Assembly: GCA_964509735.1 (NCBI GenBank)
Contig: CAZDYJ010000002.1
Location: 481 to 64,480, forward strand
Source: an uncultured Gammaproteobacteria bacterium
Lineage (GTDB): Bacteria; Patescibacteriota; Patescibacteriia; Patescibacteriales; UBA12465
Direction of reading: 5' to 3'
Length of the DNA: 64,000 nucleotides
Below the pieces are notes generated by a model. The model worked only from the letters and a program-made list of their open reading frames with translations. It ran no database searches and was not told where the DNA came from. Shown here one piece after another: positions 11,741 through 46,141 of the stretch (position 1 is the stretch's first letter; each line of letters opens with the position of its first letter). The translations under genes and the position numbers were made by a program.

Positions 11741-11744
11741 AGTT

Positions 11745-12485: not shown

Positions 12486-12517
12486 AAAGAAGTGCTGATT
12501 CCGTAGCACTTCTTTTT
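12486..12517 (-). terminator. Rho-independent terminator downstream of the AAA-ATPase gene (palindromic, possibly bidirectional)
   Basis: aaagaagtgct-gattccgt-agcacttcttt hairpin (11-bp stem) flanked by A/T runs on both sides. Confidence 0.55.
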
Positions 12518-12597
12518 ATAATTTCTCAATGTCTAACGTAGTCTGAATTATTTTATAATTATAGCTTTTTATTTAATTAAGGGCAAGTGGTTTATTA

Positions 12598-16762: not shown

Positions 16763-17584
16763 TTAACAATAAGCACCAAGACACAAATACCAACTCAAAA
16801 TAGTCTCTCCAAAAAATAAAGCAATAAGTGTTCCAATTACTAAAAAAGGGCCTAATGCTAAGCGAGATTTAAAGCCTTTTTTACGTCGCCAAATTAAAAA
16901 TAAAGCAAAAATAGAGCCTATTAAATAGGTAATAAATAATGCCAGAAGTAAAATTTGCCAGTTAGCTAAATATGTTCCGATAAATAAGGCTATCCAAATA
17001 TCTCCCTCTCCGACGCCTTTTTTTCTGGTAACGATATATTGAAATAAAAAGAAAAAAGAACCAATGGCCATGGCTATAATAAGGGGCCAAAAGCTTAAAC
17101 CTAAAAATAAACTAAGAATAAAAACTAAGATTGTCGCCGGCCAGAGAAGAAGCATGGGCACTTCTTGCCAGCGCGCATCGTAGACGAAGATAATTATCAA
17201 AGAGCAAATAAAAATCCAATCTCTTAAAACAAATAAAAAGTTATTAGTCGAAATACTTAAGCCAATATTAAAAATAAAATCTACAAAAGAATAATCTAAA
17301 GGAAGATTAAAGGCTTTAAAAAAGGAAAAACTTAGTAGAAGTCCGGTCGCCAACTCAACTGCTGGATATTGCCAAGAAATATTTTTTTTACAATATCGAC
17401 ATTTAGCTTTTAAAATTAAGTAGGAAAAAAGAGGAATATTATCATACCAATTTATTTGCTTCCGACAATTAGGACAATACGACCGTCCCCAAATATTTTC
17501 TCTTTGACGCAAGCGCCAAATAAGGCAATTTAAAAAACTGCCAAAAATTAAAGCTATTAAAAAAACCATTATAAATAGAGTCAT
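16763..17584 (-). CDS. Prepilin peptidase (type IV leader peptidase, A24 family)
   Basis: N-terminal tetracysteine CPNC...CRYC; polytopic membrane protein; second catalytic Asp in VGEGDIW (GxGD-like). Confidence 0.7.
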   Translation of the reverse strand: MTLFIMVFLIALIFGSFLNCLIWRLRQRENIWGRSYCPNCRKQINWYDNIPLFSYLILKAKCRYCKKNISWQYPAVELATGLLLSFSFFKAFNLPLDYSFVDFIFNIGLSISTNNFLFVLRDWIFICSLIIIFVYDARWQEVPMLLLWPATILVFILSLFLGLSFWPLIIAMAIGSFFFLFQYIVTRKKGVGEGDIWIALFIGTYLANWQILLLALFITYLIGSIFALFLIWRRKKGFKSRLALGPFLVIGTLIALFFGETILSWYLCLGAYC

Positions 17585-23688: not shown

Positions 23689-24696
23689 TTATTTTTTAAA
23701 AGTAAAAGAATTTAACATTAAATTGAATATATTTTTATAAGCAAGTCTTTCGGAATTAATTGGTATATAAGATAGAGCATAAATATTTTCCCGACTTTCT
23801 TCTGTAATATAGAAATTTAAACCATCGGCACTTTTTATCGCCTCAAAATCACTTTTTACAATCAAACGATCAAGGCTGACGCTCTCATCTTTAAACATGT
23901 TTTCGTACCAAGAAACGATTCCTGATTTATTGTCATTTTTCATAACCGAAACCTGAAAATAAGATGAATCTGCCGCTTCTAAAACAAAGGTATTATCATT
24001 TAACTGATTAGTTAACCAGGCCACAGGATATAAAAAATTGAAAGAATAGGCCTGATTACGATAAAAAACAAGATTTGAATTGTCTTCTATTCTACCGACT
24101 CCGGCTGGATTATAAGAATTTAAAATTTCCTGCAAATCATTATACCCATCCCCATCGCTATCTTGATTATCTTTGGATGTGCCAAGAATAATCTCCTCTT
24201 CGTCGTATAAACCGTCTCCATCACTATCTAAAAGAGGTGCGTCGTCTACCTCGTCTACCTCGGGCCCACTTACCTCAACTGCTTCAATTAAAACAGTGTC
24301 ATTGTTGTCATTTAAATCAAGAACTGGAGCAGGTTCGGTAGATGAGGCTTGTAATTCCGCTTCCGATTTTTTTATTTCATTTTCAGGTTTTATTTCAATC
24401 TTATTTTTATTGGCTACTGGAGAAATAGTGTATATATAAGCAAAATAAACAATAGCCGCTATAACAATAAAACCAAAGAACATAATTAAAACTCCCACTA
24501 TTTTAAATTTCTTTTTTTCCGCAACATGGCTCTGCAAGCTAACTTTTCCAGCTGCTAAAGGATTAGAAACTGTGCCTAATATTTTTTCTTGATTAGGCAT
24601 ATTATGAACTATCAAATCACGTTCAATTTGATCAGAAATATCTTTCTCATTTATTTTTTCCTCTTTTTCTGTTTTTTTGTTCTTGGAAGAAAACAT
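23689..24696 (-). CDS. Single-pass membrane protein with extracellular thrombospondin-type-3-like Asp-rich calcium-binding repeats
   Basis: TM helix VGVLIMFFGFIVIAAIVYFAYIY. DSDGDGLYDEEEI...DSDGDGYNDLQEI (DxDxDGxxDxxE). Ends with the SYNPAGVGR motif shared with the 251-aa paralog. Confidence 0.5.
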   Translation of the reverse strand: MFSSKNKKTEKEEKINEKDISDQIERDLIVHNMPNQEKILGTVSNPLAAGKVSLQSHVAEKKKFKIVGVLIMFFGFIVIAAIVYFAYIYTISPVANKNKIEIKPENEIKKSEAELQASSTEPAPVLDLNDNNDTVLIEAVEVSGPEVDEVDDAPLLDSDGDGLYDEEEIILGTSKDNQDSDGDGYNDLQEILNSYNPAGVGRIEDNSNLVFYRNQAYSFNFLYPVAWLTNQLNDNTFVLEAADSSYFQVSVMKNDNKSGIVSWYENMFKDESVSLDRLIVKSDFEAIKSADGLNFYITEESRENIYALSYIPINSERLAYKNIFNLMLNSFTFKK

Positions 24697-24705
24697 ATTT
24701 TTACT

Positions 24706-24897
24706 TTAAATAAAAAATAAAACGGCTATAATAATTAAAACAAAAATTAAAAATCCTAAAACCAGCCATTTTTGAAAATGGCCGGTTTCTGTTTTTGGCA
24801 TAGTATGTAAATCTAAAGACAGTTTTGCCGTTTCTTTTTTTTCAAAAAGATTTATACGGTGACGTGAGCTCTCTTTTTGTCCATCCTTTTCAGTCAT
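24706..24897 (-). CDS. Small membrane protein (63 aa), hypothetical
   Basis: C-terminal TM WLVLGFLIFVLIIIAVLFFI; sits between the two TSP3-repeat paralogs in the same orientation. Confidence 0.3.
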   Translation of the reverse strand: MTEKDGQKESSRHRINLFEKKETAKLSLDLHTMPKTETGHFQKWLVLGFLIFVLIIIAVLFFI

Positions 24898-24919
24898 ATT
24901 TTATATTGTCTAAAAAATT

Positions 24920-25675
24920 TTAGATTTCTAAACGACCTTCGCCGACAGGATTATAACCGTTTTTAACTTCCTCCCCGTCACTATATCCATCGCCGTCGGT
25001 ATCAGTAATAAGAGGATCGCTTTTATAAATCATCACTTCTTCATAATCACTTAAGCCGTCTCCATCAGTGTCTACTTTTAAAGGATCGGTTTTATAAGTC
25101 ATTATTTCTTCATAGTCTGTTAAGCCGTCTCCGTCTGAGTCTGAATTATAAGGATCTGTGCCGTATCTATAAATTTCATCATAATCCGATAAACCATCTT
25201 TATCTGAGTCTAATTGACTTAAGTCAACGCTTGGCACCTCCTCTTTTTCTTCTTCCTTTTCCTCTACCGTTGGCGTAACAAAAGAATCATCTTTTTCCTC
25301 AACAACAGGCACGTTTTGATTGTTTTCTGGAATTTGATTAATTATAGGTTCATTATTTTCTGGTTTTGGAGCAAGAAATTTACTATAAGCTAAATAAGCA
25401 CCTAAAATCAAAATAGCACCAACGACAGCAAAAATAGCAATTTTTAACCATTTTCCGCCACCTCTGCCTTCTTCCGGTTCTTCGTAAATAACTTTTTGTC
25501 CTGCTTGCAGAGAATTTGTTTCTAAACTTGAATTAGAAGGGTTAGAAGTTAAGCCAACTCTTCTTGTTTCAATTTGTGAAGATTGTTGTCCTCCAGTCGC
25601 ATTATCAGTGTCGGCAAAAATATCGTCGACTTTAGCGTTTTGAGGATTTTGTGCTCCAGTTAAATCATTAAACAT
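24920..25675 (-). CDS. Single-pass membrane protein with three tandem thrombospondin-type-3-like calcium-binding repeats (paralog of 23689-24696)
   Basis: [21 protein letters not shown]. Three ~22-aa repeats [11 protein letters not shown][IV]M.YK[TS]DPL, encoded by ~66-nt tandem DNA repeats at about 24960-25210. Ends with GYNPVGEGR. Confidence 0.5.
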
Positions 25676-25766
25676 ATTTTTATTTTCTTTTAAACTTAAG
25701 AAAAAATCTCAAGCCTTGTTAACTTATCTATATTATAAATCATTTGAAGTATTTTTCCAAATGTAT

Positions 25767-26057
25767 TTATTTTCTTGCTTCCATTAAATTCTCAGCTACT
25801 GGATCCAAAACTATTTCCGAATCGTTGTTTATTATTTTATAAATCAAATTACCATCTGAATCGCGAAAAGCTTGAGCTTTAATTTCTTGATCTAAACCAA
25901 GCTCATTTTTTTGTTCAGCGCTTAAAAACTCCACCTTAAAATCATTTTTTTCTTGAGTCTCGATGTCTTTATTGCGATTAAAGAATAACAAAAAAACCAA
26001 TAAAGCAATTAATAAAGCGACCAAGCTGCCGAGAATGATTATTTTTTTTCTATCCAT
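25767..26057 (-). CDS. Small N-terminally anchored protein (96 aa), hypothetical
   Basis: TM IIILGSLVALLIALLVFLLFF followed by a short soluble domain; in the same operon-like array. Confidence 0.3.
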   Translation of the reverse strand: MDRKKIIILGSLVALLIALLVFLLFFNRNKDIETQEKNDFKVEFLSAEQKNELGLDQEIKAQAFRDSDGNLIYKIINNDSEIVLDPVAENLMEARK

Positions 26058-26126: not shown

Positions 26127-29100
26127 TTATTCCAAACGCTGCATAAGATCTTCGCCACCACCACCTCCACTGTTTCCCTCAATCTCTTTAACAACAGAAC
26201 CCCCACCTCCGCCGCCGCCACTACTAGAAGGACTGCTGCTTACAACACACACACCATTATAATTCATTGTTCCGTTTATAACTTTGCTGCCAATAGTTTT
26301 ACAAGAATCTCCAAAATATCTAACTATAAAATCAGTTCCCACACATTCATATCTATAACGATCACACCAATTAGTTGTTAGCCAGTTGTCTGTGCAATTA
26401 CCAGGAATTCTTGATGATCTTAAATCATCTTTGTCTCGACAACTATCCCCTGTGGCCACACCAATTCTTTTTAAATCTTTAAACCCAATTGGGCATTTTA
26501 TTTGATTTGTTTTGTGAGTATTATCACTTGATGTATATTTCGTGTTGTCTACGCAAATAGGATTATCTATTTGAATAAATGTACAGTTAGCTAAAGGGTT
26601 TGTTGGGTTAGAAAAAGAATCTGATAAACATATTTTTTTAGGATAGGTGTTGTTTATTTGACTACTTGTAAACCGATAGCTTTTTGTAGATACACCCTTG
26701 TAATACTCGTATGTTACTCCGGCTAAAGTTGCATCTCCTTCAAGAAATTGTATGTCTTTAACAATTTCCTCAACTACCCAACTTTTCTTTTCACATTTAT
26801 TGCTAGTGCATTTATAACCTAAGTCGCATTGTCCATCGGCTGTGCAATAACTTGGGTCAGCCTTACAGTCTCTGATAGCAAAATCACAAATAAAGCCTAT
26901 ATCACAGTCTCTGTCAGAAAAACAGGCTGTGTCATCTCCTTCGCCAGCATTAATACCACAGTCAACAGGACAAGTAGCTCTTCTTTCTTTAGCTGTCTGA
27001 CAAAAACCATCTCCACAAAAACCGCCACCATCAAGAGGATATTTAAAGACACAATAATTTCCAGAGGATATTTCAAATGGAGTCTTATCCCCTACGTTTG
27101 TATTACAAGCATACTGACGGTTAATAGAGCTGTTGTCTAAAGCATGGGCCGCCACACCATCTAATCCGTCACAATCTTCATAGCCATCATTATATAAACC
27201 CCCGCGTCCTTCAGAGTTAGGCGCCTGCTTAATGCCATCACCACAATAACTATTTATTCTCAAGCTAAATTCTTTCTGTGACTTTGCTCCAAAAGGAGAG
27301 GTAGCTGACACCTTAACATTAAAATATGATCCAGCCTGATTGCCAGGAAAAGATTTTGGATATCCGCTTATATAAAAACTATTTTGAGAAAGTTCAGCAC
27401 TGCCTAAATCTAAGCTAAAATCAGAGCTCGGCAAACCTTCTAAACGATAAGTAGTTTTTTGATCTAAATAAGAATCTGGGCCGACCAAACAATTATAAAA
27501 ATACTTATAACTACCCGACGAATTAATTCTCGCTGATAAAGGACAGGAAAAATTTAAAGGTGGTTTAGGTGATAAAAAATCCACATAAAATACTTTATTA
27601 AACCATTTATTATTTCTGTCTCTAACTCTTATATCAAAGCCAATTCTAACATCGTTAGAGAACTCTCCATTAGGATAATTTGCGGGATTAATAGTTCCGG
27701 TATAACTAACTTTATAGCGATTATTACCGGATGGAACTGGTTTTCCATCCCCTTCTCTTACAAAAAATGATCCAACTTCTGGTCCGGAAATTTTTTGTAC
27801 TACATAGTCGGAAGCACTGGGATTAGGGGATAAATTTTCTCCTGAAAAATAAAAACTATAATAAAAAGGAGTTCCTTCTTTAAGGGTGTGAATAGAATTT
27901 TCTGCTTCAATAAAAACGCCAGGCTCCTCTATTTTAATACTAAATGTTTCTTCAATGGCGCCACCGCGACCATCACTGACAATTAAATTAAAGTTATAGT
28001 TATTATTTGAGGGAGTTATTGGAGTTGAGGCGGCATAAACTTTTTTTTCAAATTTATTACTAGTATCAATTAAAACTGGTGCAGCACTCCAGCCAAGCCA
28101 TTTAGAAGCATCACCAGTTGATATTTCCCATTCTAAAGGATCGTTGTTTTCATCAAAAACCCTAATATAGCCATTTAAAGCTCTCCCAGCTTGAGCACTT
28201 AAATAATAGTCGACTACAATAGGGGAAATATTAGCACCGCTTCCACCTCCGGTTGTAAAATTAGTTAAACAAGCCGAACCACTATAATCACCGGGATTAA
28301 ATTCATATCCAAAATCATAACTTTCTAAAGAGGAGCATAAATTGTAACTCGAACCCTCTGAATTAGAAGCATAAACCATAACATAGCTGTTATCTGGTAA
28401 TGGCAAAGATTGTGGACCTGGATCATTTACAAAGCGTCGACTAATTTCATCCCAGCAAGTAATTTTATCAAAACCTGGGCAATAACCAAGTCTATTTATA
28501 GGATCAACATAATTTGGAGAAACGGCCAATTCACTTAAAAAATTCTGAGACCAACTAGGCCAGACAGACACGCTTTTGTTTGCCAAATAAGTTCCAGCTG
28601 TTAAACGAGGATAGTAACCAGTTTTCTGGCGATAATTAGCTAAAGCTTCTTTCATTTCCTCTAAACGTCCGATTCTTTTAGTATCTCTTATAATCATTGC
28701 TTTATGACTGTCACAAAAAAATCCACTCGGACAATCACTGTCAATTAGACAATTTTTTTTATTTAATAAAACACATGATCCCGTGCTGTTTCCTGAGGTT
28801 GAACAAATTTGATCATTAGAACAATCACTATCGTTTTGACAAGAAAAAGATGACACAGAGCAGGAATAAGAAGCATCCGAAAACTCTCCTTTACTTAAAT
28901 TATCATTAAACTTCCAACGAGAAATTATTTGTCCTAAAATATCAACTGTTTTTTCTGATGGCTCCTGGCTATAAGAAATAACATATATATTTGTAAACAC
29001 ATCTTTGCTGTCACTGACATTAGCAGCATTTACATAAACAGTTCGTCCATCTCTTATCGCTTCATAGCCATCAACCGTTAGAGCTTGTGGTGATCCAGCA

Positions 29101-29300
29101 AAGCCCTGACTTCTGTACCAAGAGGCGATGCTGTAATGATTGGGATTAGGAACAACTCGAACCGCAATAGCATCAGCTGAATCAGAAAAAGGATTTGAGT
29201 TTTCTTGAGCCTCGGCTGGATAAAAAACCAAAGCGGCTAAAAAAACAAAAGCAGATACTAAAATAAAACGACGAATGTTCATATTTTTTTCATTTTTCAT
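26127..29300 (-). CDS. Giant secreted Cys-rich protein (1057 aa) with Ig-like domains and a C-terminal poly-Gly tail
   Basis: Signal peptide MKNEKNMNIRRFILVSAFVFLAALVFYPAEA. Numerous Cys clusters (CSVSSFSCQNDSDCSNDQICS...; CGDGFCQTAKERRATCPVDCG). Cadherin/Ig-like segment LNGYIRVFDENNDPLEWEISTGD. C-terminus SSGGGGGGGSVVKEIEGNSGGGGGEDLMQRLE. Confidence 0.55.
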   Translation of the reverse strand: MKNEKNMNIRRFILVSAFVFLAALVFYPAEAQENSNPFSDSADAIAVRVVPNPNHYSIASWYRSQGFAGSPQALTVDGYEAIRDGRTVYVNAANVSDSKDVFTNIYVISYSQEPSEKTVDILGQIISRWKFNDNLSKGEFSDASYSCSVSSFSCQNDSDCSNDQICSTSGNSTGSCVLLNKKNCLIDSDCPSGFFCDSHKAMIIRDTKRIGRLEEMKEALANYRQKTGYYPRLTAGTYLANKSVSVWPSWSQNFLSELAVSPNYVDPINRLGYCPGFDKITCWDEISRRFVNDPGPQSLPLPDNSYVMVYASNSEGSSYNLCSSLESYDFGYEFNPGDYSGSACLTNFTTGGGSGANISPIVVDYYLSAQAGRALNGYIRVFDENNDPLEWEISTGDASKWLGWSAAPVLIDTSNKFEKKVYAASTPITPSNNNYNFNLIVSDGRGGAIEETFSIKIEEPGVFIEAENSIHTLKEGTPFYYSFYFSGENLSPNPSASDYVVQKISGPEVGSFFVREGDGKPVPSGNNRYKVSYTGTINPANYPNGEFSNDVRIGFDIRVRDRNNKWFNKVFYVDFLSPKPPLNFSCPLSARINSSGSYKYFYNCLVGPDSYLDQKTTYRLEGLPSSDFSLDLGSAELSQNSFYISGYPKSFPGNQAGSYFNVKVSATSPFGAKSQKEFSLRINSYCGDGIKQAPNSEGRGGLYNDGYEDCDGLDGVAAHALDNSSINRQYACNTNVGDKTPFEISSGNYCVFKYPLDGGGFCGDGFCQTAKERRATCPVDCGINAGEGDDTACFSDRDCDIGFICDFAIRDCKADPSYCTADGQCDLGYKCTSNKCEKKSWVVEEIVKDIQFLEGDATLAGVTYEYYKGVSTKSYRFTSSQINNTYPKKICLSDSFSNPTNPLANCTFIQIDNPICVDNTKYTSSDNTHKTNQIKCPIGFKDLKRIGVATGDSCRDKDDLRSSRIPGNCTDNWLTTNWCDRYRYECVGTDFIVRYFGDSCKTIGSKVINGTMNYNGVCVVSSSPSSSGGGGGGGSVVKEIEGNSGGGGGEDLMQRLE

Positions 29301-29328: not shown

Positions 29329-32300
29329 TTAATCTCCTAAGGGAATAAAAAGCAATTCTTCTGACTTAGAACTTTCATTACCAGAACCATCAATTGCTGA
29401 TATGGCTATATAATTACCAGAAAAAGAAAACTCAGAAGCAGAAAATACAAGATTATTTAAAGCTTCACCACTTTTTTTAACTGGAGAGTCAAAAGATTTT
29501 CCATAAAGACCCGGTCTTAATCCGATGTAAATTCGGTAAAAAGAAGTGTCGTCATTATTTTCTTGCCAGCTAATACGAACTGAGTTTTCTCCAACAGGAT
29601 TAGCCTCTAAATTTTGTGGAACACTTGGAGCTGTTTTGTCAGTAGGCATGGCTATTTTTTCGTTAGCAGCTGGACTTTCGGCTTTGTTAACTGAAACAAC
29701 GCCAATTCTAAAAGCATAATTAAAGCCATTATCTAAACCAGATACAATAGCCGAACAGCTATAGATATTATTATTTAAACTACATATATCAGTATTGTTG
29801 GCCTTAATTTCTCTAAAAGATATTTCACTTTTGCCCGCACGAATATAATATATTTTGTAAGCATCAACTTGATCAGCATTTGACTCCCAAGAAATTTTCA
29901 CCTGACCACTGGTTTTTAAATCCAAGGCTTCAATTATCCTTCCTGAAGATGGTAATTTTTCTCTAAAGAAATATGATTCTTTTAAAACATTCCAAATACA
30001 TATTCCATCAGGCACACCATCACCATTTCTATCATCTCCACAACGATCATTTACATTATTGCAAGAAGCGGGGCGATCAGAGCTGCAAATCAAGTTATTA
30101 TTCCTACCAATAATCACCGGTTCATTTAAAACAGCTGGTAAATCATCGTATGTTCCGCTGGTTCCAGCATCGCGACAATAATAAAAGCTATAATTAAAAT
30201 TACCGCAATCACTTTCTCCAATTGTACAATTATTTACACTATCGTACCAAGGAGACCATAGGCCATCACGACTAATCGCTGGCCAAGGATTGTTACATAT
30301 AAATACAAAAATGTCAGCGTTTTTATTAAAGTTATTGCCAGCCGAATAGTAATTACAACAATTTTCTTCACAAATATCATTAGAACAAGAACAGGTCGCG
30401 TCGCTATTACAAGTTGACCCTGGAGTGTTAGCGATAAAACGAGACATATCTATAGAAGCGTTTATTTTTGTTTTACCATCAGTTATACCTTTTTGAGCTG
30501 AAACAAAATATTGATTTAAAGGTAAGCCGTTTAATCTTTCTCCTTTGGCGATTGTTTCATCAGCAATAGTAAACTTATAATCCCAAAAATAGCCACCAAC
30601 TGGACGCAAGGATTGTCCGTCACTGCTTAAAGCAAAGGCGCTCCAGACTTTATCCTTATCAGCTTTTGAATCAAAACTACCTGAACCAGGAATATCTTTT
30701 TCTTCAGACTCCAAGGCGTTGTCAGTAGTTTTAAATAAATAGGAAATAGGCTTAACATCGATATTCGAAATAGCACATATGCCAGACATGGCACTTTGAG
30801 AAGAAAGGGTTGAAAATTTAATTATTTCAGAATTTTTAAAACTCTTTTCATTAAATTTAATATTCTCAGCTTCTAAAAATCCGCTTGGGATAGAAGCATC
30901 GGGATAACCACGACCATTAAAACCAACTCCTTTAAGACTTAGTATACCTGTTTGACTATTTAAATTTTCATCACCTAAAACTAATAAATAGTAATTAGTA
31001 GATGGTGATAAAATAGTATTTGATAAAAAATTAACAGTACTGGCTTCGGCCGTATTTTCTAAAAATGCTTTACCAGGAATCATACAATAAAGTTTGTCCT
31101 CACTTGGTTTTTCAGCTAATGCCCTATTACTTAGAGATGGTGAGAATAAAGAGGCAATTTTTCTAACTGAAACTCTAAAGAAATTTTCTATTCTGGCAAA
31201 GAAATTATTATTATAAGCTATAGCGTCTTTTAAAGACTCAGCTGAAGCTACAAAAGAGCCGTTTGGACAAATCCCATCCCCAAAAGATCTTTCCTCAATT
31301 AGAACAATATTATTGTCTAAGGACGATTGATCCATTAACTGATTAAAGCTAAATTTTAAAATAGCATTACGACAAACATTATCTGATAAATGGGCTGGAA
31401 AACTCGAAACGATTGTTGGTCTTGTTTCACAACAAGTATCATTACCACAACCAACTAGTTCTGGTGAGCCACATTGCTCATCGGTTTCACAACCACAACA
31501 TAAACCTCTTTCTGCTCCAGCACAATTTCCGCGATCAGCGATACAAGATAAATTCGGATTAATATTTTGACATGAATCAAAAGCTCCCGGAGTAGTTACC
31601 GGCTGACAACAACAAGTTCCACAATCACCTGAAGTAGCTGAGCCAAGAACCCCTCCCTCTGCCATACAAGAAAATCCTGGAGCACTACACAAAGAAGTGT
31701 CACAAACATAGGGGTCTTTAATGCCAAAATAACCACTTACAGAACAAGATAATCCAACGCCACTTATAGGATTAGCACAGGCTGATTCACATTCCTTAAT
31801 ACCTTTATAGTTTCCTGTTTTTAGTTTAGTTTCAGAAGCACAAAGCTTTTCTTCTTCCTTACAATCATAATAAGCACAGTAACCTTGGTTTTCTGGATTG
31901 CCATCATTTATAACTTCTCCTAAGGTACACTTTGACTCCTTGGCATCAAAGCAGCAACGACCACTGGCTTCAGCTGAACAAGCGTCAAACCCTTCTAAGG
32001 CTGAGCATGGATCACTTAAAGCACATTCGGTTTCACATTTTTCTAAACTTAAATAACTACCTGTTTTAACAGGATAACTAGAAGCACAAACATTTGATTC
32101 AGTAGCGGAACAATTATAATAAGCGCAATAACCAAAGTCCTCACTTAAAGGATTATCGCTTATTAAATTGCCTTTTCCACCTCGACAAATCCCTGAGGCA
32201 GAGTCTAAACAACAAACATTAGCATGTTCAAGACAAGCCTCTGGGCTCAAACTAGCACAATCAGTACAATATCCATTTGGAAAACTAGAATCATTAACTT

Positions 32301-35196
32301 CACAAAATTGACCACTGGTTCCTGAACAATTACAAGCAGCATCTCTTTCAAGGGCAGTATCTCCAGCAGCCGCACAACCACTACAACGACCTAAACCACT
32401 ATCATCGTTTGTAGTATCACTACCACAAGTTCCTCCGCATTGTAATTGAACAACTTCGCCGTCTTTGTTTTGAAAAGAGCAGCAATCCCGAGCACTCTGC
32501 CCAACGGTACAACAACAATCACAGCTAGCGCTTTTTGTGGAAACACAACGGCCTACCGAAGAATCACTCTCAGACTCACAAATGGACCCACTAGGACATA
32601 ATTTATTTGAAATACAGCGACCAAAACCATTTATATTTTCACATTTCAAACCGTAGTCGCAGCTAGAACAAGTTGAAGTTGGATTATAGCATTTATCTCC
32701 CACACCTCTTATAAATCCTTCTGGGCAAGATGATGTTAAATTTATTTCCAAACGTCCATTTTCATTACAATATAATTTAGTAGATAAAGCCTGTCCATTT
32801 AACTCATATTCGAAAGATTGATCTAAATCACAATTTTGCTCTTGTTCGTTTTCTAAGTTTTGTAAACATTTATCAAGGTTTGTGTTATAAGTACAATTAT
32901 TTTCTCCAATTCTACAACCAGCTACACTTGAACAATCATAACTACAATTGACACCAAATATTTTATCTCCACCAGCATAAGGAGAACATATACCAGAAGC
33001 ATTTGGACAGGCACCAACATTACAAAATCCGTAATATTTAGATAATCCGGCACAGCTATCTGCTTCTGTCTCTGGATTAGAAAAAGCGGTACTAAAACTC
33101 CATTCATAAACAGAGCTCGGTACGTCAACATAACATTTATCAAGTGTATTAACACACATTCCTTTTTTAAAAGTGCCAGCCGGACAACAAACCTGAGACC
33201 CACAATCAGAATTAGAAATACAAGCCCCAACTGAGAAATTTAAATCATTACCATAAACACCGTTTTTAAATATTCTAACAGGACCAGTAATTGAATTTTC
33301 CGGCACAGAAGTTTCCACCTTATCAGCCCGACCATCTTTCTTAACTATAGCTGACACATTATCAGAACCATTGAATTTAATTGAGACCTCGCTAGAAGGG
33401 GCACCAAAATATTCACCCCAAATAGCAACCTTAGTTAAGGTTGGTCCGCGAATAGGATCTATTTTACACAAACTTGTTTTTAAATCTATATTTTGATCAA
33501 AAGTAAAGGCTTTGGGATTTAAATTATCAGTGCTAACAGTTTTATCTCCTAATTCAATTTTTATAACATAGTCGGAAGGATTTAAATCTTTAGGAACTTT
33601 AACCATTATCTGATTATCTTTCCAAACAGAATTTAAACAAACTTCTGGAAAATCATAAGAAGCTTCAATGTCTCCAAAAAAAACTTTTCTATTACCCTTT
33701 GCTCCTCCAAAACCAGATCCATAAATAGTTACGTATTGACCAGTGTTTCCAGAGCTTGGAGAAAACGAAGAAATAAAAGCCCCTTCATTAGGTTCTTTTT
33801 CTTTTACAAATGTTAAAAAATTACTTTTCTCCAAACTACCATTTAAGGTTGCCTGGACAAAACTTCCTGACTCACCAGCTCGAATATTTGGAGTAGCTGA
33901 CAAACCTTGTAAGCCTTTGGGGTCACTAAAATCAGAAACAAGGCCTCTAACATTAGTTTGATAATTTCCAAAATAAGCCTCGCCTGAGAAAAGATTAACA
34001 CCGGAATAAGAAACCTCCGAACTTAACTGTCCTCTTATTGGATCAATTTCGCATAAACCAGGACGAACAATACTATTGGAACGAAAATCTGGAATAATTG
34101 GGCCATAGTCATTATTGGTTGTGTCAAAAAGAGAATCGGCGGCAACAACTTTTATAGGACCAGTCGCTGCGCCAGCTGGAATAGCGATAATTATCTGATC
34201 ACTTCTCCAGAAACTAATACAGTCTGGATTTATAATGTTTGGCCTATCAGCTTCTTTTTCAGTGCCACTTCCTAAAAAAATAACCTTACTCTTATCAGCA
34301 TCATAAGATCCAAAATTTCGTCCAGTAATAGTTAGAAAATTTCCCGTCGCTCCATTGGGAGCACTTAAGTTGCAAGTATCACTACAATCTGCGTCCGTTT
34401 TACAACTTTTATTCTGTTCATTCTGACAAAAACCGCCCGCTGGACTAATATCAATTATAACGGGAGACCCTATACAGGTACAAGAATCGGGACTACAAGT
34501 TAAATAGGCGCCACATAAAGCATCATCAGCCTGACAAGTAGAGCCGCTTGAAGATCTATTACAAGAATCACCAGCCTGACCCAAGGGGCGACATAAACAG
34601 CTGTTGTCACAGTAATTTCCCTCGCCACAAATTTGATCAGTAGCTTGGCAACCAGGCAAAGCACTACCATCACAACTAACAGGGCCACAACCAGCTCCAT
34701 AACAACCACTACAATCAGAGCCTATACAAGCGCCAAAAGATCCATTGTTCCAAACCATGTATCCTCCACAACCACAAGCTTGAGTATCTCCGCTATTGTA
34801 TCCCCAATTATCACCGCTTATTACGCCGCTAATTCTATTAATTAAAAAGCTGGCAATTCCCCAAGAGGCTAAAATTATAACTAAGCCAATAACTCCAGCA
34901 ACTAGTATTTTTTTAGCTTCGGAAACTTTTTCTTCATTTCCGCCTGAGGTCATCCATTTAAAACCGCCATAAAGAATTATGCCCACCGCTAATATACCTA
35001 AAAACCCTAAGGCAAAATTTATTATTCTTCCCGCCGTTTCCCTTGGGTCGCTATTTGTTTCGCCAAGTGATCCGTCTAAACCACTGGCCACCTGGTCAAT
35101 CCCGTAGTCTTGAGCAAAGGCTATGCGAAAAAATAAAATACCTCCCAATAAAAGCAGGAAAGAAGTTATCTTAAAAAATTTTTTTCTGTTTATCAT
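29329..35196 (-). CDS. Giant surface protein (1955 aa): TrbC/VirB2-pilin-like N-terminal double-TM module + IPT/TIG-like domains + extensive Cys-rich region + C-terminal fibronectin-III-like domains
   Basis: N-terminal signal (…AFAQD) then two hydrophobic helices separated by KWMTSGGNEEK (IINFALGFLGILAVGIILYGGF / VAGVIGLVIILASWGIASFLINRI). Three IPT/TIG-like segments (LTITGRNFGS; VTIYGSGFGG; VAIWGEYFGA). Over 150 Cys in patterned clusters. C-terminal FN3-like SVPQNLEANPVGENSVRISWQENNDDTSFYRIYIG. Confidence 0.6.
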   Translation of the reverse strand: MINRKKFFKITSFLLLLGGILFFRIAFAQDYGIDQVASGLDGSLGETNSDPRETAGRIINFALGFLGILAVGIILYGGFKWMTSGGNEEKVSEAKKILVAGVIGLVIILASWGIASFLINRISGVISGDNWGYNSGDTQACGCGGYMVWNNGSFGACIGSDCSGCYGAGCGPVSCDGSALPGCQATDQICGEGNYCDNSCLCRPLGQAGDSCNRSSSGSTCQADDALCGAYLTCSPDSCTCIGSPVIIDISPAGGFCQNEQNKSCKTDADCSDTCNLSAPNGATGNFLTITGRNFGSYDADKSKVIFLGSGTEKEADRPNIINPDCISFWRSDQIIIAIPAGAATGPIKVVAADSLFDTTNNDYGPIIPDFRSNSIVRPGLCEIDPIRGQLSSEVSYSGVNLFSGEAYFGNYQTNVRGLVSDFSDPKGLQGLSATPNIRAGESGSFVQATLNGSLEKSNFLTFVKEKEPNEGAFISSFSPSSGNTGQYVTIYGSGFGGAKGNRKVFFGDIEASYDFPEVCLNSVWKDNQIMVKVPKDLNPSDYVIKIELGDKTVSTDNLNPKAFTFDQNIDLKTSLCKIDPIRGPTLTKVAIWGEYFGAPSSEVSIKFNGSDNVSAIVKKDGRADKVETSVPENSITGPVRIFKNGVYGNDLNFSVGACISNSDCGSQVCCPAGTFKKGMCVNTLDKCYVDVPSSVYEWSFSTAFSNPETEADSCAGLSKYYGFCNVGACPNASGICSPYAGGDKIFGVNCSYDCSSVAGCRIGENNCTYNTNLDKCLQNLENEQEQNCDLDQSFEYELNGQALSTKLYCNENGRLEINLTSSCPEGFIRGVGDKCYNPTSTCSSCDYGLKCENINGFGRCISNKLCPSGSICESESDSSVGRCVSTKSASCDCCCTVGQSARDCCSFQNKDGEVVQLQCGGTCGSDTTNDDSGLGRCSGCAAAGDTALERDAACNCSGTSGQFCEVNDSSFPNGYCTDCASLSPEACLEHANVCCLDSASGICRGGKGNLISDNPLSEDFGYCAYYNCSATESNVCASSYPVKTGSYLSLEKCETECALSDPCSALEGFDACSAEASGRCCFDAKESKCTLGEVINDGNPENQGYCAYYDCKEEEKLCASETKLKTGNYKGIKECESACANPISGVGLSCSVSGYFGIKDPYVCDTSLCSAPGFSCMAEGGVLGSATSGDCGTCCCQPVTTPGAFDSCQNINPNLSCIADRGNCAGAERGLCCGCETDEQCGSPELVGCGNDTCCETRPTIVSSFPAHLSDNVCRNAILKFSFNQLMDQSSLDNNIVLIEERSFGDGICPNGSFVASAESLKDAIAYNNNFFARIENFFRVSVRKIASLFSPSLSNRALAEKPSEDKLYCMIPGKAFLENTAEASTVNFLSNTILSPSTNYYLLVLGDENLNSQTGILSLKGVGFNGRGYPDASIPSGFLEAENIKFNEKSFKNSEIIKFSTLSSQSAMSGICAISNIDVKPISYLFKTTDNALESEEKDIPGSGSFDSKADKDKVWSAFALSSDGQSLRPVGGYFWDYKFTIADETIAKGERLNGLPLNQYFVSAQKGITDGKTKINASIDMSRFIANTPGSTCNSDATCSCSNDICEENCCNYYSAGNNFNKNADIFVFICNNPWPAISRDGLWSPWYDSVNNCTIGESDCGNFNYSFYYCRDAGTSGTYDDLPAVLNEPVIIGRNNNLICSSDRPASCNNVNDRCGDDRNGDGVPDGICIWNVLKESYFFREKLPSSGRIIEALDLKTSGQVKISWESNADQVDAYKIYYIRAGKSEISFREIKANNTDICSLNNNIYSCSAIVSGLDNGFNYAFRIGVVSVNKAESPAANEKIAMPTDKTAPSVPQNLEANPVGENSVRISWQENNDDTSFYRIYIGLRPGLYGKSFDSPVKKSGEALNNLVFSASEFSFSGNYIAISAIDGSGNESSKSEELLFIPLGD

Positions 35197-35235: not shown

Positions 35236-37938
35236 TTATAAACGACAATTACCCGATGAGTCTAATTCTGTTGTCGATTCTCCAAAACAACAAGAGCCGT
35301 CAACTTCAGAACAGCCAGGACCGATGCTTGGTTTGAAACAATTTTGATAAATATCTCTAACCCCGGAGCCTACTTGAGCATAAAAAGTCATTGATTCAGG
35401 AAGTGGAGTATGTCCAATAGTTGCAATTGTCATATCTGGTTCTCCGTCAAAAGGTTCAATATCTTTATTTTCGCTATTTATCCAATAACCAAAAGCGGCC
35501 GGAGCAGAACTTCTTAAGTTAATAAATTTATGATTATAAACATTACTACCCGCCCTTATATCGGTACTGCCGCTAATTAATGTGCTGTTTAGCATTAAAG
35601 TATTAAAATAAACATCAATTGGACTAGCTGGCTCTACCTCACTTGAGCCTTGTCCTGGTCCAATGTATGTTATTCTTGGTGGGTCTAAATTTATTTTATC
35701 GCTAACAAAAAATGACCATGAATAATTATCACCGTTTTCTATTGAAGGGTTATTTTCATTATAAAAACTAAGTGGACCTTGGGAACTGGTATTTCTATTT
35801 CCATCAAGAGAATTAGTTGCGGCGTCTATTATACCATCAAGATTAGCTATATTAGCTGACGGATAATTTTTTCCCTCTAAATTTTGACAAACATTATAAC
35901 CTAAAGGTACTGACGAGCATGAATTAAAGGGACTTAAAGCTGCACAGTCATTATTATTTGAGCAAGTTTTTAAATTTGCTGCCTGTAGCTCAACTTTTAA
36001 ATTACTGTTAGCCGGCAAACAATAAATTTTATCCCCACAAGCATTAACTCCACATTCCTCGTTAGATAAAAATTCTACAGTGCGATAACGATTAGAAACC
36101 ATGAAACGACCATTTACATAATCTCCCACGCAAATAGAATTATCACACTTAAAAGATTTACAATCGGAATTAGCGGAACATGATGATCCAGAAGGCAAGG
36201 AATCACTTCTAAAATTAACAACTCTTATAAAATTAGAGACTTCGTCAGCACTACCAGAAACGGTTAAAGGATTAATTGGTTCGTTAAAATTTATTTGAAT
36301 CGCAGAATTTCGAGGACGATCTGGTTTGTCTTTTACTTCACTTAAGTCTATTTTATTAAGCCCACCAGTAAATGGTTTTATGGATAAAGAGCTTGGATTA
36401 CTAGCACTTAAAACAATACTATTACCAGAAATTCCTGCCACTCTTGATTTTAATTTTATTAATGAGCCGTTAGAATTTTCCAATTCAATATCAGGATGAC
36501 CACTTAAAACTGCCTTGATATTAAAAGCTTGGCTTTCTAGGTTTGAAGGAGAAAGAGAATTACAGTTTTCCAAAACAGCAATATTATTATTCCCTGAAAC
36601 AGAAGAAAAAGTATAAACCATTGAGTTAACTCTTAAGGTATCGGCTAAACGCTCTGGTTTAATTTTTATTTCCCAAATATTTCCTGATTCACGAGTTTCA
36701 GTTTTAAATTTTAATTTATAATCGGCAAAGAACACTTCATTATTAGAATTGAAATCAGCAATTCCTAAGAGACTATTATTTAAACCATTAAATAGCTGAG
36801 CCTTGTTGGTATTGTCAGATGGAATAGATATTTTAAAAATGCTTATTTGCCCCGTATAATTATCAAAAGAAACTTCTGGGCCAGAAGGACTAATTGATAA
36901 AACTTCTGCTTTAGAATAAATTTCTGGGCAAGCATTTACTTTTATCTCAGCAATAGCTGAAACGGGAGAAACTGATTCTCCATAAAGATCTTTCTCGTTG
37001 TCCTGTCTAGGAACTATTTTATCTTGCAAAACAATTGGTGGTTCAAGATCTAAAACATTGCTAATTGTAAAAGTTACTTCTAAATAATTACTACTACAAG
37101 AACTAAACATTGAAACGCCGCCAGTTTTTTTTATTCTGTCAGTAAACCGAACGGAATAAGGGGTGTGCCCCGTGCTTGAACCCAAATAACTAAGTGGTGA
37201 TAGTACTAAAGTTTTTTTATCATTAGGAACAGAAACAAGCACATCACTGACATTAGAATTAACTGCTGGGCAAGAGCCGCCAGCACAAGCATCACCTAAA
37301 TCATTTTTAAATATTCTAATATTTTCTGGGTTTAACTTATTACAAGTATTGTTATCACAAGCACATGACAAACCAGCATCACTTATACAAACAGAGCTTA
37401 AATCAATTTCCTCTTTAAAAGTTATCATTATTGAAGTGTTTCGAGGAACGTCTTTTTGTCCGTCTTCAGGATAAATACTTTCAACCGAACAAGCTCCTAA
37501 GGCGCCAATCCCAGGATTATAAAAACCACTTGGAGTACTTTGCCATTGACTTGTTCCACCAGCGCCAGTTAAAGTATCTCTTACTCGATTGATGATAAAA
37601 GTTGTTATCCCCCAAGAAGCTAAAATAATTATTAAACCAATAACAGCATTTTTTAATATTTTCTTAGCTACTGATATTTTTTCTTCATTACCCCCTGAAG
37701 TCATCCATAAAAATCCAGCATAGATAACCAAAAGAACAGCTATAACGCCTAGGAAGCTTAGGGCTAATTGAATAAAGCGTCCAGCTACAACTCTTATGTC
37801 ATCAGTTGCAACTAGCGATCCATCGAGTCCCGACTCAACTTCAGTTAAACCAAAGTCTTGAGCAAAAGCAAAATTAACCAAGAAAAACAAGGTTAAAAAA
37901 CTAAAAGCCAAGACAAAGAATCTTATTTTTTTATTCAT
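35236..37938 (-). CDS. Giant surface protein (900 aa) sharing the same pilin-like N-terminal double-TM module, followed by Ig-like and Cys-rich domains
   Basis: The first ~125 aa are ~65% identical to the 1955-aa protein (MTSGGNEEK loop, two TM helices, AFAQDFGL signal-peptidase site). Bacterial Ig-like segments (SIYPEDGQKDVPRNTSIMITF; ITYIGPGQGSSEVEPASPIDVYF). Cys-rich C-terminal region. Confidence 0.6.
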   Translation of the reverse strand: MNKKIRFFVLAFSFLTLFFLVNFAFAQDFGLTEVESGLDGSLVATDDIRVVAGRFIQLALSFLGVIAVLLVIYAGFLWMTSGGNEEKISVAKKILKNAVIGLIIILASWGITTFIINRVRDTLTGAGGTSQWQSTPSGFYNPGIGALGACSVESIYPEDGQKDVPRNTSIMITFKEEIDLSSVCISDAGLSCACDNNTCNKLNPENIRIFKNDLGDACAGGSCPAVNSNVSDVLVSVPNDKKTLVLSPLSYLGSSTGHTPYSVRFTDRIKKTGGVSMFSSCSSNYLEVTFTISNVLDLEPPIVLQDKIVPRQDNEKDLYGESVSPVSAIAEIKVNACPEIYSKAEVLSISPSGPEVSFDNYTGQISIFKISIPSDNTNKAQLFNGLNNSLLGIADFNSNNEVFFADYKLKFKTETRESGNIWEIKIKPERLADTLRVNSMVYTFSSVSGNNNIAVLENCNSLSPSNLESQAFNIKAVLSGHPDIELENSNGSLIKLKSRVAGISGNSIVLSASNPSSLSIKPFTGGLNKIDLSEVKDKPDRPRNSAIQINFNEPINPLTVSGSADEVSNFIRVVNFRSDSLPSGSSCSANSDCKSFKCDNSICVGDYVNGRFMVSNRYRTVEFLSNEECGVNACGDKIYCLPANSNLKVELQAANLKTCSNNNDCAALSPFNSCSSVPLGYNVCQNLEGKNYPSANIANLDGIIDAATNSLDGNRNTSSQGPLSFYNENNPSIENGDNYSWSFFVSDKINLDPPRITYIGPGQGSSEVEPASPIDVYFNTLMLNSTLISGSTDIRAGSNVYNHKFINLRSSAPAAFGYWINSENKDIEPFDGEPDMTIATIGHTPLPESMTFYAQVGSGVRDIYQNCFKPSIGPGCSEVDGSCCFGESTTELDSSGNCRL

Positions 37939-38043: not shown

Positions 38044-39513
38044 ATGACTATTGAGAGAATCATAAAAAAATTTCTAGAAAATCACCCCGAAGCTGACACA
38101 TCTGTTTTACAGAAAGCCTTTGAATATGCCAGAGACGCCCATAAAGAACAAGTTCGAAAAAGTGGCGAACCCTACATAACTCATCCTCTGCACACAGCTT
38201 ATTTATTAACAGAAATTAAAGCTGACTTATCAACCGTTGCTGCCGGACTTCTTCATGATGTGCCAGAGGACACTGAAAAAACAATCGAAGACGTTGAAAA
38301 AGAATTTGGTTCAGAAATAGCTGGTTTAGTAAAAGGCATTACTAAATTAGGAAAAATCAAATACCGCGGTATTGAAAGGTACAAAGAAAATCTAAAAAAA
38401 ATGTTTCTAGCCATGACTAGTGACTTGAGAGTTATTTTTATAAAATTTTGTGATCGCCTTAATAATTTAAGAACCATAGAAAGCTTGCCCGAGGAAAAGC
38501 AAAAACGCATTGCTCAAGAAACTTTAGAAATATTTGTGCCAGTTGCCGGTCTTTTAGGTATTAGTCGTCTTAAGTGGCAAATGGAAGATATTTGTTTTAA
38601 AATTCTTTATCCAGAAAAATTTCACGAGCTTGAATATGAGTACGAAGTTGAAAAAAAAGTTGAAAGAAATCAATTCTTTAGAAAGGTAAAAAGCATCTTA
38701 ACTCCTAAACTTGAGGAAGCAGAAATAGAATATGAGGTTGAAATGCGTTTTAAGCATTTATATAGTATTTATAAAAAAATGCAAGAAAAAAATCGTAAAT
38801 TCGATGAGATTTATGATGTTTTTGCTATGCGTATTATTGTGCCAAATGTTAATGATTGTTATAAAACTTTAGGAATAATCCACACTCTTTGGAAGCCAAA
38901 CCCAAGTAGATTTAAGGATTATATTGCTGTTCCAAAACCAAACGGCTACAAATCTCTTCATACCACAATTTACGGACCAGAAGGAAAAGCTACTGAATTT
39001 CAAATTAGAACCAAAGAAATGCATGAAGAAAGTATTTATGGCTTAGCTGCTCATTGGTACTACAAACACATGGACCATGGCGGTGAATATAATGCACCGG
39101 CCTGGGTAAAGGAAATAGTTGAAGTTCAAAAAGAAGTAACAAGCACCGATGAGTTGGTAAAAAAAGTAAAGCTTGATATTTTTCAAGACAGAATTTTTGT
39201 TTTTTCACCAAAAGGAGATGTTTTTGAATTGCCAGAAAAATCGACACCAATAGATTTCGCTTATGCGGTTCACTCAAATATTGGCAATAAAGCAGCTAGT
39301 GTTTTAATAAACGATAAATTAGGAAAACTTGACCAAGAACTTCGAAATGGTGACATGGTAAAAATAATAACCGAAAAAAATCGCGAACACCCCAATTCCG
39401 ATTGGTTAAAATTTGTAAAAACAAGAAGAGCTAAAGAAAGAATTAAACAATTCTCTAAAAAATCATCCCTTCTTAACATAAAAAGATTTATTCCAGGAAT
39501 GAAAGATAAATAA
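38044..39513 (+). CDS. Short bifunctional RelA/SpoT-homologue (HD hydrolase + (p)ppGpp synthetase + TGS; no ACT/RRM domain)
   Basis: HD motif HDVPED. Synthetase motifs YKSLHTTIYGPEGKATEFQIRT and AAHWYYK. TGS-like stretch FSPKGDVFELPEKSTPIDFAYAVHSNIG...GDMVKIIT. The protein ends about 30 aa later. Confidence 0.8.
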   Translation: MTIERIIKKFLENHPEADTSVLQKAFEYARDAHKEQVRKSGEPYITHPLHTAYLLTEIKADLSTVAAGLLHDVPEDTEKTIEDVEKEFGSEIAGLVKGITKLGKIKYRGIERYKENLKKMFLAMTSDLRVIFIKFCDRLNNLRTIESLPEEKQKRIAQETLEIFVPVAGLLGISRLKWQMEDICFKILYPEKFHELEYEYEVEKKVERNQFFRKVKSILTPKLEEAEIEYEVEMRFKHLYSIYKKMQEKNRKFDEIYDVFAMRIIVPNVNDCYKTLGIIHTLWKPNPSRFKDYIAVPKPNGYKSLHTTIYGPEGKATEFQIRTKEMHEESIYGLAAHWYYKHMDHGGEYNAPAWVKEIVEVQKEVTSTDELVKKVKLDIFQDRIFVFSPKGDVFELPEKSTPIDFAYAVHSNIGNKAASVLINDKLGKLDQELRNGDMVKIITEKNREHPNSDWLKFVKTRRAKERIKQFSKKSSLLNIKRFIPGMKDK

Positions 39514-45169: not shown

Positions 45170-46141
45170 TTAAATAAATTCTTTAAAAAATTCTTCCTGA
45201 CAAGAACATTTTATATTATTCAAAAATATTCTTGTTTGTCTAAACTTTTCAACGATTTCATAAGATTCCCGCGAACAAAGGTCGCAGTTTTTAGCAATAG
45301 CAATTGGTGGAGGTTCATCGCTGAAACCACCAACTGACAATGGCCAAGAGTTTTTAAGCACCTCTTCGATTATAAGCATAACTGTCCACAAATAAGGCGG
45401 TCTAAACTGTCCAGATAAATAATCTTTTTCCAGTTCCGTTCCTTCTTGGACAAAGGCGCTTGATAAGAAAATTTCTGAAACACCTTTAGACAAAACATAG
45501 TTTATGCTTTTTAAAACATCGAAATAAGCTTCTTTTTCAGATAAATTTTTCGGTTTTAAAAAAATATAAACGGCTGATTTTATCTCAAAATGAGAAAGTA
45601 ATAATAATGTCTTTTCAAAAACATCTTTTGATAAAGATTTTTTTATTACTTTATTGCGAATAAAATCATCTTGACTTTCAAGTCCGATAGCAACAAACAC
45701 CTTTAAATTAAAGGAGTTATTTTTAATCATTTCTAACTTTTCTTCATTTATATATTCACAGCGTGACTCTACAAGTAAAGTTTTTATCTCACTTATACCG
45801 TTTAAACGCTTGAGAACATATTCTTGAAATCTTAATGGTATTTCTTTATTATTTAAAAAGCTACCACCATTAAAAATAAACACTTCGCTAACTCCTTTTT
45901 TTAGAGCGTCTTTTAAAGAGCTATCAAAAAGAAACTTAAACAAGAAAAAGGGATAAAGAATTCCTAAGCTATATTTTTTTGTAGCTTTATGAAATCCACA
46001 CATAGCGCATCCGCCACTTTTTTTCTGATATTCGCAACCAGAGCCTGGCAAAGACAAGATTAAGCGTTTAATTGTTTTTCCTTGTGACAAAGAAAAAACA
46101 GTTCTAATTTCATAAAAATCAATTTTTGACACCAAACTCAT
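45170..46141 (-). CDS. Radical-SAM-like TIM-barrel protein with a non-canonical CX8CX2C cluster motif
   Basis: LPGSGCEYQKKSGGCAMCGF, in place of the canonical CX3CX2C. A second Cys cluster near the C-terminus (NCDLCSRE...CSCQEE). No confident family assignment possible from sequence alone. Confidence 0.35.
   Translation of the reverse strand: MSLVSKIDFYEIRTVFSLSQGKTIKRLILSLPGSGCEYQKKSGGCAMCGFHKATKKYSLGILYPFFLFKFLFDSSLKDALKKGVSEVFIFNGGSFLNNKEIPLRFQEYVLKRLNGISEIKTLLVESRCEYINEEKLEMIKNNSFNLKVFVAIGLESQDDFIRNKVIKKSLSKDVFEKTLLLLSHFEIKSAVYIFLKPKNLSEKEAYFDVLKSINYVLSKGVSEIFLSSAFVQEGTELEKDYLSGQFRPPYLWTVMLIIEEVLKNSWPLSVGGFSDEPPPIAIAKNCDLCSRESYEIVEKFRQTRIFLNNIKCSCQEEFFKEFI

Follow-up and report, generated by a model that had tools for sequence, protein, structure and literature searches.

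Two adjacent genes in a 64,000-nucleotide stretch of contig CAZDYJ010000002.1 (hereafter the window) probably encode modular VirB2-type pilins, in which an N-terminal unit of the pilin family PF18895 (the module) is joined through a flexible linker to a giant, disulfide-rich ectodomain (the payload) that would be displayed at the cell surface. According to the open reading frame (ORF) list and its translations, gene A encodes a 900-aa protein (positions 35236 to 37938, minus strand) and gene B, 39 bp downstream on the same strand, encodes a 1955-aa protein (29329 to 35196). The module is not new: it belongs to an existing Pfam family, automatic annotation already labels proteins that carry it as pilins or as Ig-like proteins, and modular pilins are an established idea for type IV pili. 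What appears to be new is that a VirB2-type pilin would serve as the carrier of giant Ig-like ectodomains and that two such proteins form a fixed, co-evolving tandem pair; we regard the discovery value as moderate.

An earlier reading of the window from its letters alone (the sequence-only reading) had claimed that the N-termini of A and B are about 65% identical with identical spacing and that the two proteins share nothing downstream. The peptide quoted there is the exact N-terminus of A (residues 1-125, encoded at 37564 to 37938 on the minus strand), and BLASTP with compositional adjustment aligned A residues 24-125 with B residues 26-128 at E = 7e-36. This alignment contains 64 identical residues in 103 (62%) and one gap, placing the earlier estimate within about 3 points of the measured value, and all other BLASTP segments between the two proteins had E-values of at least 0.77. 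When we aligned the mature modules by the Smith-Waterman method, the score of 310 compared with 30.6 ± 5.7 for shuffles of the whole sequence (z = 49) and 38 ± 8.7 for shuffles inside each topological segment (z = 31). As the similarity survives both composition correction in the pairwise alignment and the segment-preserving shuffle, it reflects homology rather than the composition of signal peptides or membrane helices. The modules of A and B also have the polar motifs QD(F/Y)G, SGLDGSL, WMTSGGNEEK and AKKIL in common, and a six-frame phmmer scan of the window found exactly two module copies. At the DNA level the two copies are 63% identical, with a pN of 0.25 and a pS of 0.78; since synonymous differences are saturated, the copies are old and their resemblance has been kept by purifying selection, not left by a recent duplication.

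The sequence-only reading called this module pilin-like, and both copies indeed match Pfam PF18895 (T4SS_pilin, named for the type IV secretion system, T4SS) above the curated gathering cut-off of 26.6 bits (A: 37.2 bits, model positions 3-71; B: 42.6 bits, positions 7-71; model length 71). Weaker matches below the respective cut-offs, of A to PF04956 (TrbC/VirB2) and of both A and B to NCBIfam NF045849 (a Mycoplasma pilin-like conjugal transfer protein of integrative and conjugative elements), point in the same direction. Some orthologues carry the NCBI names 'pilin', 'TrbC/VirB2 family protein', 'Ig-like domain-containing protein' or 'IPT/TIG domain-containing protein'. The module aligned end to end with 21 stand-alone PF18895 pilins of Patescibacteria (100-150 aa) at 40-66% identity and constitutes a whole pilin, comprising a signal peptide ending in A-x-A, an acidic tail with G...DPR, helix 1, a WMTxGGNE-K..AKK loop and helix 2; the A-x-A precedes a conserved Q-D-F-G in A and in the stand-alone proteins alike. 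Stand-alone pilins end 0-60 residues past helix 2, whereas A and B continue for a further 775 and 1,827 residues, respectively. Site-wise conservation was correlated between 142 fused modules and 118 stand-alone pilins (Spearman 0.71, p = 1e-15), the invariant G, W, M, T, G, A and G positions were the same in both sets, and the fused modules were even less variable than the stand-alone pilins.

The stand-alone pilins of Patescibacteria, such as those in the arrays of Southlakia epibionticum and Nanosynbacter lyticus, thus have the same full-length domain and conserved sites as A and B. They differ in being 95-220 aa long, often in arrays of 2-11 genes and often near virB4, whereas A and B are giant and lie in a housekeeping neighbourhood. 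A and B resemble the classical VirB2, TrbC and TraA pilins (PF04956) in their long signal peptide, in the pair of hydrophobic helices with a short basic loop between them and in the predicted outward orientation of the termini; the classical pilins are small and consist of pilin alone, and the module makes up just 125-128 residues of A (900 aa) and B (1955 aa). Some classical conjugative pilins are cyclised head to tail, which the C-terminal payload of A and B would preclude.

Within the module we found three hydrophobic stretches, the first of which (A residues 3-27) lies in a predicted Sec-type signal peptide (residues 1-26, 37861 to 37938, minus strand; predicted cleavage AFA|QD) that AlphaFold2 (AF2) modelled as a helix over residues 2-24. 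The mature module of A (residues 27-125, 37564 to 37860, minus strand) consists of the acidic, putatively outside tail, helix 1, the WMTSGGNEEK loop and helix 2. In the AF2 model of A, two helices (48-79 and 85-123) flank a 5-residue loop and are followed by a disordered linker (124-139) and a confidently modelled, beta-rich ectodomain; the module modelled alone gave the same hairpin, with a predicted local distance difference test (pLDDT) score of 84. The linker is Gly/Ser/Thr-rich (37522 to 37569, minus strand), and its pLDDT of <50 sets it apart from the two confident regions on either side. In B, Pfam and BLASTP against A place the signal peptide and module at residues 1-128 (34813 to 35196, minus strand). 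The mature N-terminal tail has a net charge of -5, and the lysine-rich loop between the helices has +2 in A and 0 in B. From this charge distribution and the known topology of VirB2/TraA, we infer that the loop is cytoplasmic and the C-terminal payload extracellular, a placement that the 26 and 124 payload cysteines of A and B fit. F pilus subunits have their inter-helix loop at the lumen and both termini at the outer surface (PMC5018250), so that a C-terminal payload is compatible with either an anchor or a filament fate.

The A payload (35239 to 37521, minus strand; 26 Cys) matches the Pfam family Big_5 (PF13205) at 53.4 bits, and the B payload (124 Cys) contains TIG, Big_5 and two fn3-like domains. 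Many of the Cys columns are invariant in the alignment of A. The AF2 model of A has a mean pLDDT of 83.5, with an ectodomain that is almost all beta and appears as a chain of beta sandwiches. When this model was searched against the PDB with Foldseek, the top match was the surface-layer (S-layer) protein SbsC (4uj6; E = 7e-9, probability 1.0, template modelling (TM) scores 0.11-0.13, ~10% identity), followed by cadherins, NCAM and the Ig-like (BIg) domains of L,D-transpeptidases. On the strength of this model, the A payload is best described as a predicted chain of Ig-like domains. Enzyme domains were not found in the payloads, and a C-terminal sorting signal is absent from the sequences of A and B.

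We asked how widely this architecture is conserved. The top 120 database matches of A were 747-921 aa long (119 at 870-921 aa) and 48-61% identical, nearly all with 97-100% query coverage, and all but one of them combined a length of 870-921 aa with both PF18895 and PF13205. The top 120 matches of B were 1638-2318 aa long and 40-61% identical, most with near full query coverage. Scanning one genome per species, we found relatives of A in 264 GTDB species genomes, many of whose records are titled Candidatus Falkowbacteria or Patescibacteria. We analysed 82 loci (80 from the species scan and two from contig look-ups; numbered with the prefix L below), which represent 78 distinct places, four of the loci covering the same stretch of one 809-kb assembly. 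In 71 of the 78, the gene immediately after A was a module-bearing B, which measured 1,500-2,330 aa wherever it was complete. In four more divergent genomes A had no adjacent B, and the other three loci were cut by a contig end or frameshifted. The pairing is therefore not universal: in the four without B (L070, L071, L072 and L075), the most divergent at 41-43% identity, A is followed by a protein of ~360 aa in a different neighbourhood.

Across 66 other species, the A payload was 49% identical with 98% coverage, the B payload 45% identical with 96% coverage, and the modules 58-60% identical. The chromosomal position is conserved as well, marked by a RelA/SpoT gene that is transcribed divergently from A (38044 to 39513, plus strand; by Pfam) and is the same neighbour in L001 and L003. 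Together, these comparisons show that the A-B pair is a fixed, vertically inherited chromosomal envelope operon of a Falkowbacteria-like lineage and not a variable family. Many metagenome-assembled genome records with the locus (L004, L005, L007, L008 and others) are titled 'uncultured Gammaproteobacteria bacterium', and one 'Bacillota bacterium'; on a Patescibacteria-specific locus, these titles look like placeholder or wrong taxonomy labels.

The two modules of a pair resemble each other more than independent evolution would predict. In a nearest-neighbour analysis, 128 of 142 modules grouped with the same type (A or B) from another genome and none grouped with the other type from another genome, which shows that the A-B duplication is old. 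Mean A-B module identity was nevertheless 66% within genomes versus 55% across genomes, with an excess in 99% of genomes, and A-B identity rose with genome relatedness, which is unexpected under independent evolution after an old duplication. Across the comparisons made, the within-genome excess amounted to 10-11 points and was present in 97-99% of genomes, and it was still 10 points (p = 7e-12) after matching for guanine-plus-cytosine (GC) content and removal of obviously converted pairs. This persistence after GC matching led us to reject GC-driven amino-acid composition as the cause. For the window's own pair the difference is small, at 61.6% within the genome and 57.0% across genomes.

Two loci show recent gene conversion. 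In L063 (A/B junction regions at about 9971-13000) and L066 (about 9950-13000), the mature modules of A and B are 80-98% identical in nucleotides, with a 68-nt exact match in L063; identity drops to about 40% exactly at the junction between module and payload, and drops sharply at the signal peptide too. The within-genome pattern is consistent with recurrent conversion, with selection for compatible hairpins or with the two combined. Gene conversion confined to the module probably explains part of the likeness of the hairpins, which also suggests that A and B may contact each other or a common partner.

We also surveyed the wider family of the module. A word-indexed search with the module alone returned short pilins only (93-219 aa) and missed A, and its length distribution was dropped in favour of an exhaustive HMMER search, which retrieved 30,158 representative proteins with E ≤ 1e-3, of which 7,212 had E ≤ 1e-10. 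The best 150 of the 30,158, a sample biased to close relatives of the query and in which summing of scores over modules ranks multi-module proteins up, comprised 59 proteins with a single N-terminal module and a payload of 150-3,693 residues, 62 tandem proteins (2-10 or more modules) and 29 plain stand-alone pilins. The 59 single-module payloads fell into about 12 clusters, of which the A type (26), the B type (12) and a type of 2,400-3,400 aa (6) were represented as shown in brackets; domains found in other payloads were TIG, Big_5, CBM_4_9, PKD and DUF4215. The prediction of a modular family, with a conserved anchor and divergent payloads, is thus borne out among these representatives.

The tandem PF18895 proteins, which we call polypilins, form a separate observation. 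P0241, P0245, P0264 and 59 other representatives have from 2 to >10 hairpins per polypeptide; examples are a 427-aa protein with 4 modules and P0264 (1775 aa), with 10 modules by hidden Markov model and 16 matched stretches by phmmer. We rejected the possibility that the inspected proteins are read-through artefacts of pilin arrays, because their internal repeats have neither signal peptides nor start codons, and they look like genuine polypilins rather than fused gene calls. Our literature search found no published description of PF18895 polypilins. Stand-alone pilin genes were seen as well: positions 8073-10393 of L086 (a Falkowbacteria contig) hold five, beside genes for a solute-binding protein and glycosyltransferases and with no virB4 within 10 kb, and L084 has a single one beside nusA, the 911-kb contig to which it belongs also carrying an A/B pair.

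Downstream of B, gene C (26127 to 29300, minus strand) encodes a 1057-aa secreted Cys-rich protein that has a signal peptide without a pilin module. It starts 28 bp past the end of B on the same strand, so that A, B and C are spaced by 28-39 bp. C shows a weak Dickkopf-like match and, toward its C-terminus, Gly-rich runs (GGGGGGG, GGGGG), and no homologue of C was found as a payload among the module-bearing representatives. A large third gene follows B elsewhere too, but it is variable (1036 aa in L003; 1663 aa with Beta_helix in L001). Further genes on the same strand (23689 to 26057; Pfam TSP3_bac) are a 96-aa ORF and, at 23689-25675, two proteins with bacterial thrombospondin type 3 (TSP3) repeats, which are calcium-binding; a TSP3 protein is present downstream in L003 too. 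Strong terminator-like hairpins occur on the minus strand at 24789-24758 and 23671-23639, and none of comparable strength was found between A, B and C. A promoter scan gave 57 sites compared with 49.7 ± 7.8 in shuffles, an absence of excess that led us to leave this result unused. The upstream housekeeping genes of the window recur in L001 and L003, and the conserved flanks include the divergent RelA/SpoT gene and genes for HisRS, signal peptidase, QueA, RuvB and a UvrD-type helicase-nuclease.

Two more distant genes of the window deserve mention. A 695-aa coupling-protein-like ATPase (6102-8189, minus strand; TrwB_AAD_bind and TraG-D_C, with weak TraD and CedD matches) has a C-terminal CxxC-x17-CxxC treble-clef zinc finger; its gene lies among housekeeping genes and adjoins a 135-aa ORF without a family match (8210-8617). 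A 323-aa radical SAM protein (45170-46141, minus strand) has as its best NCBIfam match the archaeosine biosynthesis protein RaSEA, at 158 bits (cut-off 212), a match that is unexpected for a bacterial genome; its gene lies three genes from QueA.

Taking these results together, we propose that A and B would be exported by the Sec pathway and cleaved at AFA|QD, after which the two hydrophobic helices would insert as a hairpin with the K-rich loop (WMTSGGNEEK..AKK) in the cytoplasm and the acidic N-terminal tail and the C-terminus facing outward. The payload that follows helix 2 would then be displayed outside, where its fold and domain content suggest that it may act as an adhesive or envelope-building fibre. 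For the pilin unit itself, we somewhat favour retention in the membrane as an anchor; a less probable fate is that it is at least occasionally built into a T4SS-type filament with the payload outside.

Several observations weigh against reading A and B as modular VirB2-type pilins on display at the surface. The match of A to PF04956 (TrbC/VirB2) reached just 20.1 bits (E = 7e-4), under the 27.9-bit gathering cut-off; B had no PF04956 match at E ≤ 0.01, and some orthologues have a weak precomputed one. A module profile matched none of the PDB sequences, including those of solved VirB2 and TraA, and the best Foldseek match of the isolated hairpin model in the PDB had E = 0.41, among generic hairpins of a fold too simple to discriminate. 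Kinship with classical VirB2 accordingly rests on the Pfam assignment and the published context. Pfam scans of 46 ORFs of the window (including 45 of the 50 ORFs of at least 100 aa) found no VirB4, VirB3, VirB6 or VirB8, the coupling-protein-like ATPase 27 kb away being the only T4SS-like gene, and no T4SS assembly genes were found within 10 kb in L001 or L003; no link to a secretion machine is therefore visible at the locus. The low TM-scores to SbsC, expected for flexible multi-domain chains, back a chain of Ig-like domains and no specific function. With 775 and 1,827 residues, the payloads are too large to be accommodated on every subunit of a five-start helical filament, and the within-genome excess of module identity could arise from gene conversion alone, without physical interaction. 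Signal-peptide cleavage, topology, surface exposure and adhesion are likewise all inferred.

If A and B do reach a filament, VirB4-type machinery would extract them into a pilus made mostly of stand-alone pilins, in which they would serve as adhesins at the tip or sparsely along the shaft; they would then be the T4SS equivalent of modular type IV pilins. We hold this account tentatively. None of the family-specific constraints, those on the outside tail and the loop among them, has been lost from the fused modules, which vary even less than stand-alone pilins do. Stand-alone PF18895 pilins are found in the same lineage, one on the 911-kb contig of an A/B pair and others in the Falkowbacteria array of five. 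VirB2-type termini face outward (PMC5018250), a flexible linker follows helix 2, modular type IV pilins provide a precedent for the design (PMC8179133), and the T4SS survey of Patescibacteria recorded no PrgB-like adhesin (PMC12102498). Set against this are the lack of linked T4SS assembly genes in the window and in the related loci examined, the very large payloads, the lack of a structural match to solved pilins and the fact that, according to PMC10633639 and PMC12857230, no patescibacterial VirB2 pilus has been visualised.

An S-layer-like coat is about as doubtful. Here the hairpin, its link to secretion lost, would be a mere membrane anchor, and the regular surface layer seen on cells of the candidate phyla radiation (CPR) would be built jointly from A, B, C and the TSP3 proteins. 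The top PDB match of the A model is SbsC of Geobacillus stearothermophilus, likewise an elongated beta-sandwich chain, and Big_5 domains are present; the operon is vertically inherited among housekeeping genes, and the tight spacing of A, B and C on one strand, with genes for calcium-binding TSP3 proteins downstream, would suit a jointly built coat. SbsC, however, lacks a membrane hairpin and uses its N-terminal domain to bind the wall, its TM-scores to the A model are low, and the Pfam results for A, B and C include neither SLH nor any other wall-binding family. A plain anchor, moreover, would need no outside tail and loop conserved with stand-alone pilins.

We consider it unlikely that A and B are precursors from which the payload is cut after export, which would set a giant soluble protein free and leave behind a mature pilin of the stand-alone kind. 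C-terminal residues of TrbC are removed in processing, the disordered linker lies exactly at the junction, and the gene-conversion tracts end there, indicating that the two parts behave as separate units. The linker columns of the alignment are variable, though, with no conserved cleavage motif, the operon has no dedicated protease gene, and the genomes already encode stand-alone pilins.

The sequence-only reading had suggested a variable surface-antigen or adhesin family. Its adhesin-like part is reasonable in view of the TIG, Big_5, fn3, PKD and CBM domains of the payloads and the beta-sandwich model of A, but its variable-antigen part, in which payloads on a constant anchor would diversify fast to evade hosts or phages, is very improbable. 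There are many payload types at the level of the family, B varies in length across species (about 1,500-2,330 aa), and the published pilin arrays of Patescibacteria are sequence-variable; the window, however, has just two copies in 64 kb, at a syntenic fixed position, with many invariant cysteines, and payload identity (45-49% at ~97% coverage in 66 species) is not far under that of the modules. As the payloads are orthologous and synteny is fixed, this part of the suggestion fails. Chance or compositional similarity of the signal-peptide and membrane regions, which has in its favour solely that the region is hydrophobic and of low complexity, is ruled out for practical purposes by the compositionally adjusted E-value, the shuffles, the match of both copies to a curated Pfam model and the common polar motifs.

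The closest design precedent for the modular VirB2-type pilins proposed here comes from an unrelated pilin superfamily. The modular type IV pilins PilB and PilC of Streptococcus sanguinis, like A and B, join an N-terminal pilin carrier through a short flexible linker to a bulky adhesive effector (PMC8179133), and proteins of this kind occur in many architectures, CPR genomes included (PMC8179133). Type IV pilins (IPR012902) differ in having a class III signal, a prepilin peptidase and a single N-terminal helix, whereas A and B have a Sec-type A-x-A and a two-helix hairpin, and the two superfamilies use different assembly machines. No type IV pilin family appeared in the Pfam results for A or B. 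A and B are thus not type IV pilins, and they may work in a similar way. The window does contain a prepilin peptidase (PilD-type) gene (16763-17584, minus strand), located between ftsA and a gene for an 821-aa O-antigen-ligase-like protein with TPR repeats (17597-20062, minus strand); this indicates that type IV pilus machinery, distinct from the VirB2-type module, is encoded in the genome as well.

Contact with host cells is a necessity for Patescibacteria. VirB2-like pilins (PF18895 or PF04956) have been reported from 1,948 assemblies of this group, with arrays of 2-11 genes (PMC12102498), and in Southlakia epibionticum, the only species in which this has been tested, a pilin array and the T4SS are essential (PMC10633639, PMC12857230). 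The survey of patescibacterial T4SSs also stated that 'no adhesins such as PrgB were detected' (PMC12102498). In Gram-positive conjugation, PrgB-type adhesins are large surface adhesins, as A and B are proposed to be, that could supply contact in a monoderm T4SS; we detected no sequence similarity between PrgB and A or B. PrgB is anchored to the wall by sortase and is not known to be fused to a pilin. In the literature we searched, we found no paper on VirB2-type pilins fused to large ectodomains, and the architecture may be described elsewhere.

A more speculative proposal, which we regard as a long shot, is that in Falkowbacteria-like Patescibacteria A and B, whose hairpins co-evolve within each genome, co-assemble, perhaps with stand-alone pilins or polypilins, into a hitherto unrecognised, conjugation-independent surface organelle (a filament, sheath or membrane raft) bearing Ig-like fibres, and that this organelle would supply the host-contact device that is missing from the patescibacterial T4SS-like system. 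As fused and tandem forms outnumber plain pilins among the 150 closest representatives, a count restricted to small pilins captures the family incompletely. The conserved A-B pair is a defined target for proteomics, labelling in cryo-electron tomography and genetics, and proteins in which a complete VirB2-like pilin carries Ig-like, TIG, PKD or CBM domains over 800-3,700 residues offer concrete candidates for the contact function of the T4SS-like system in these bacteria.

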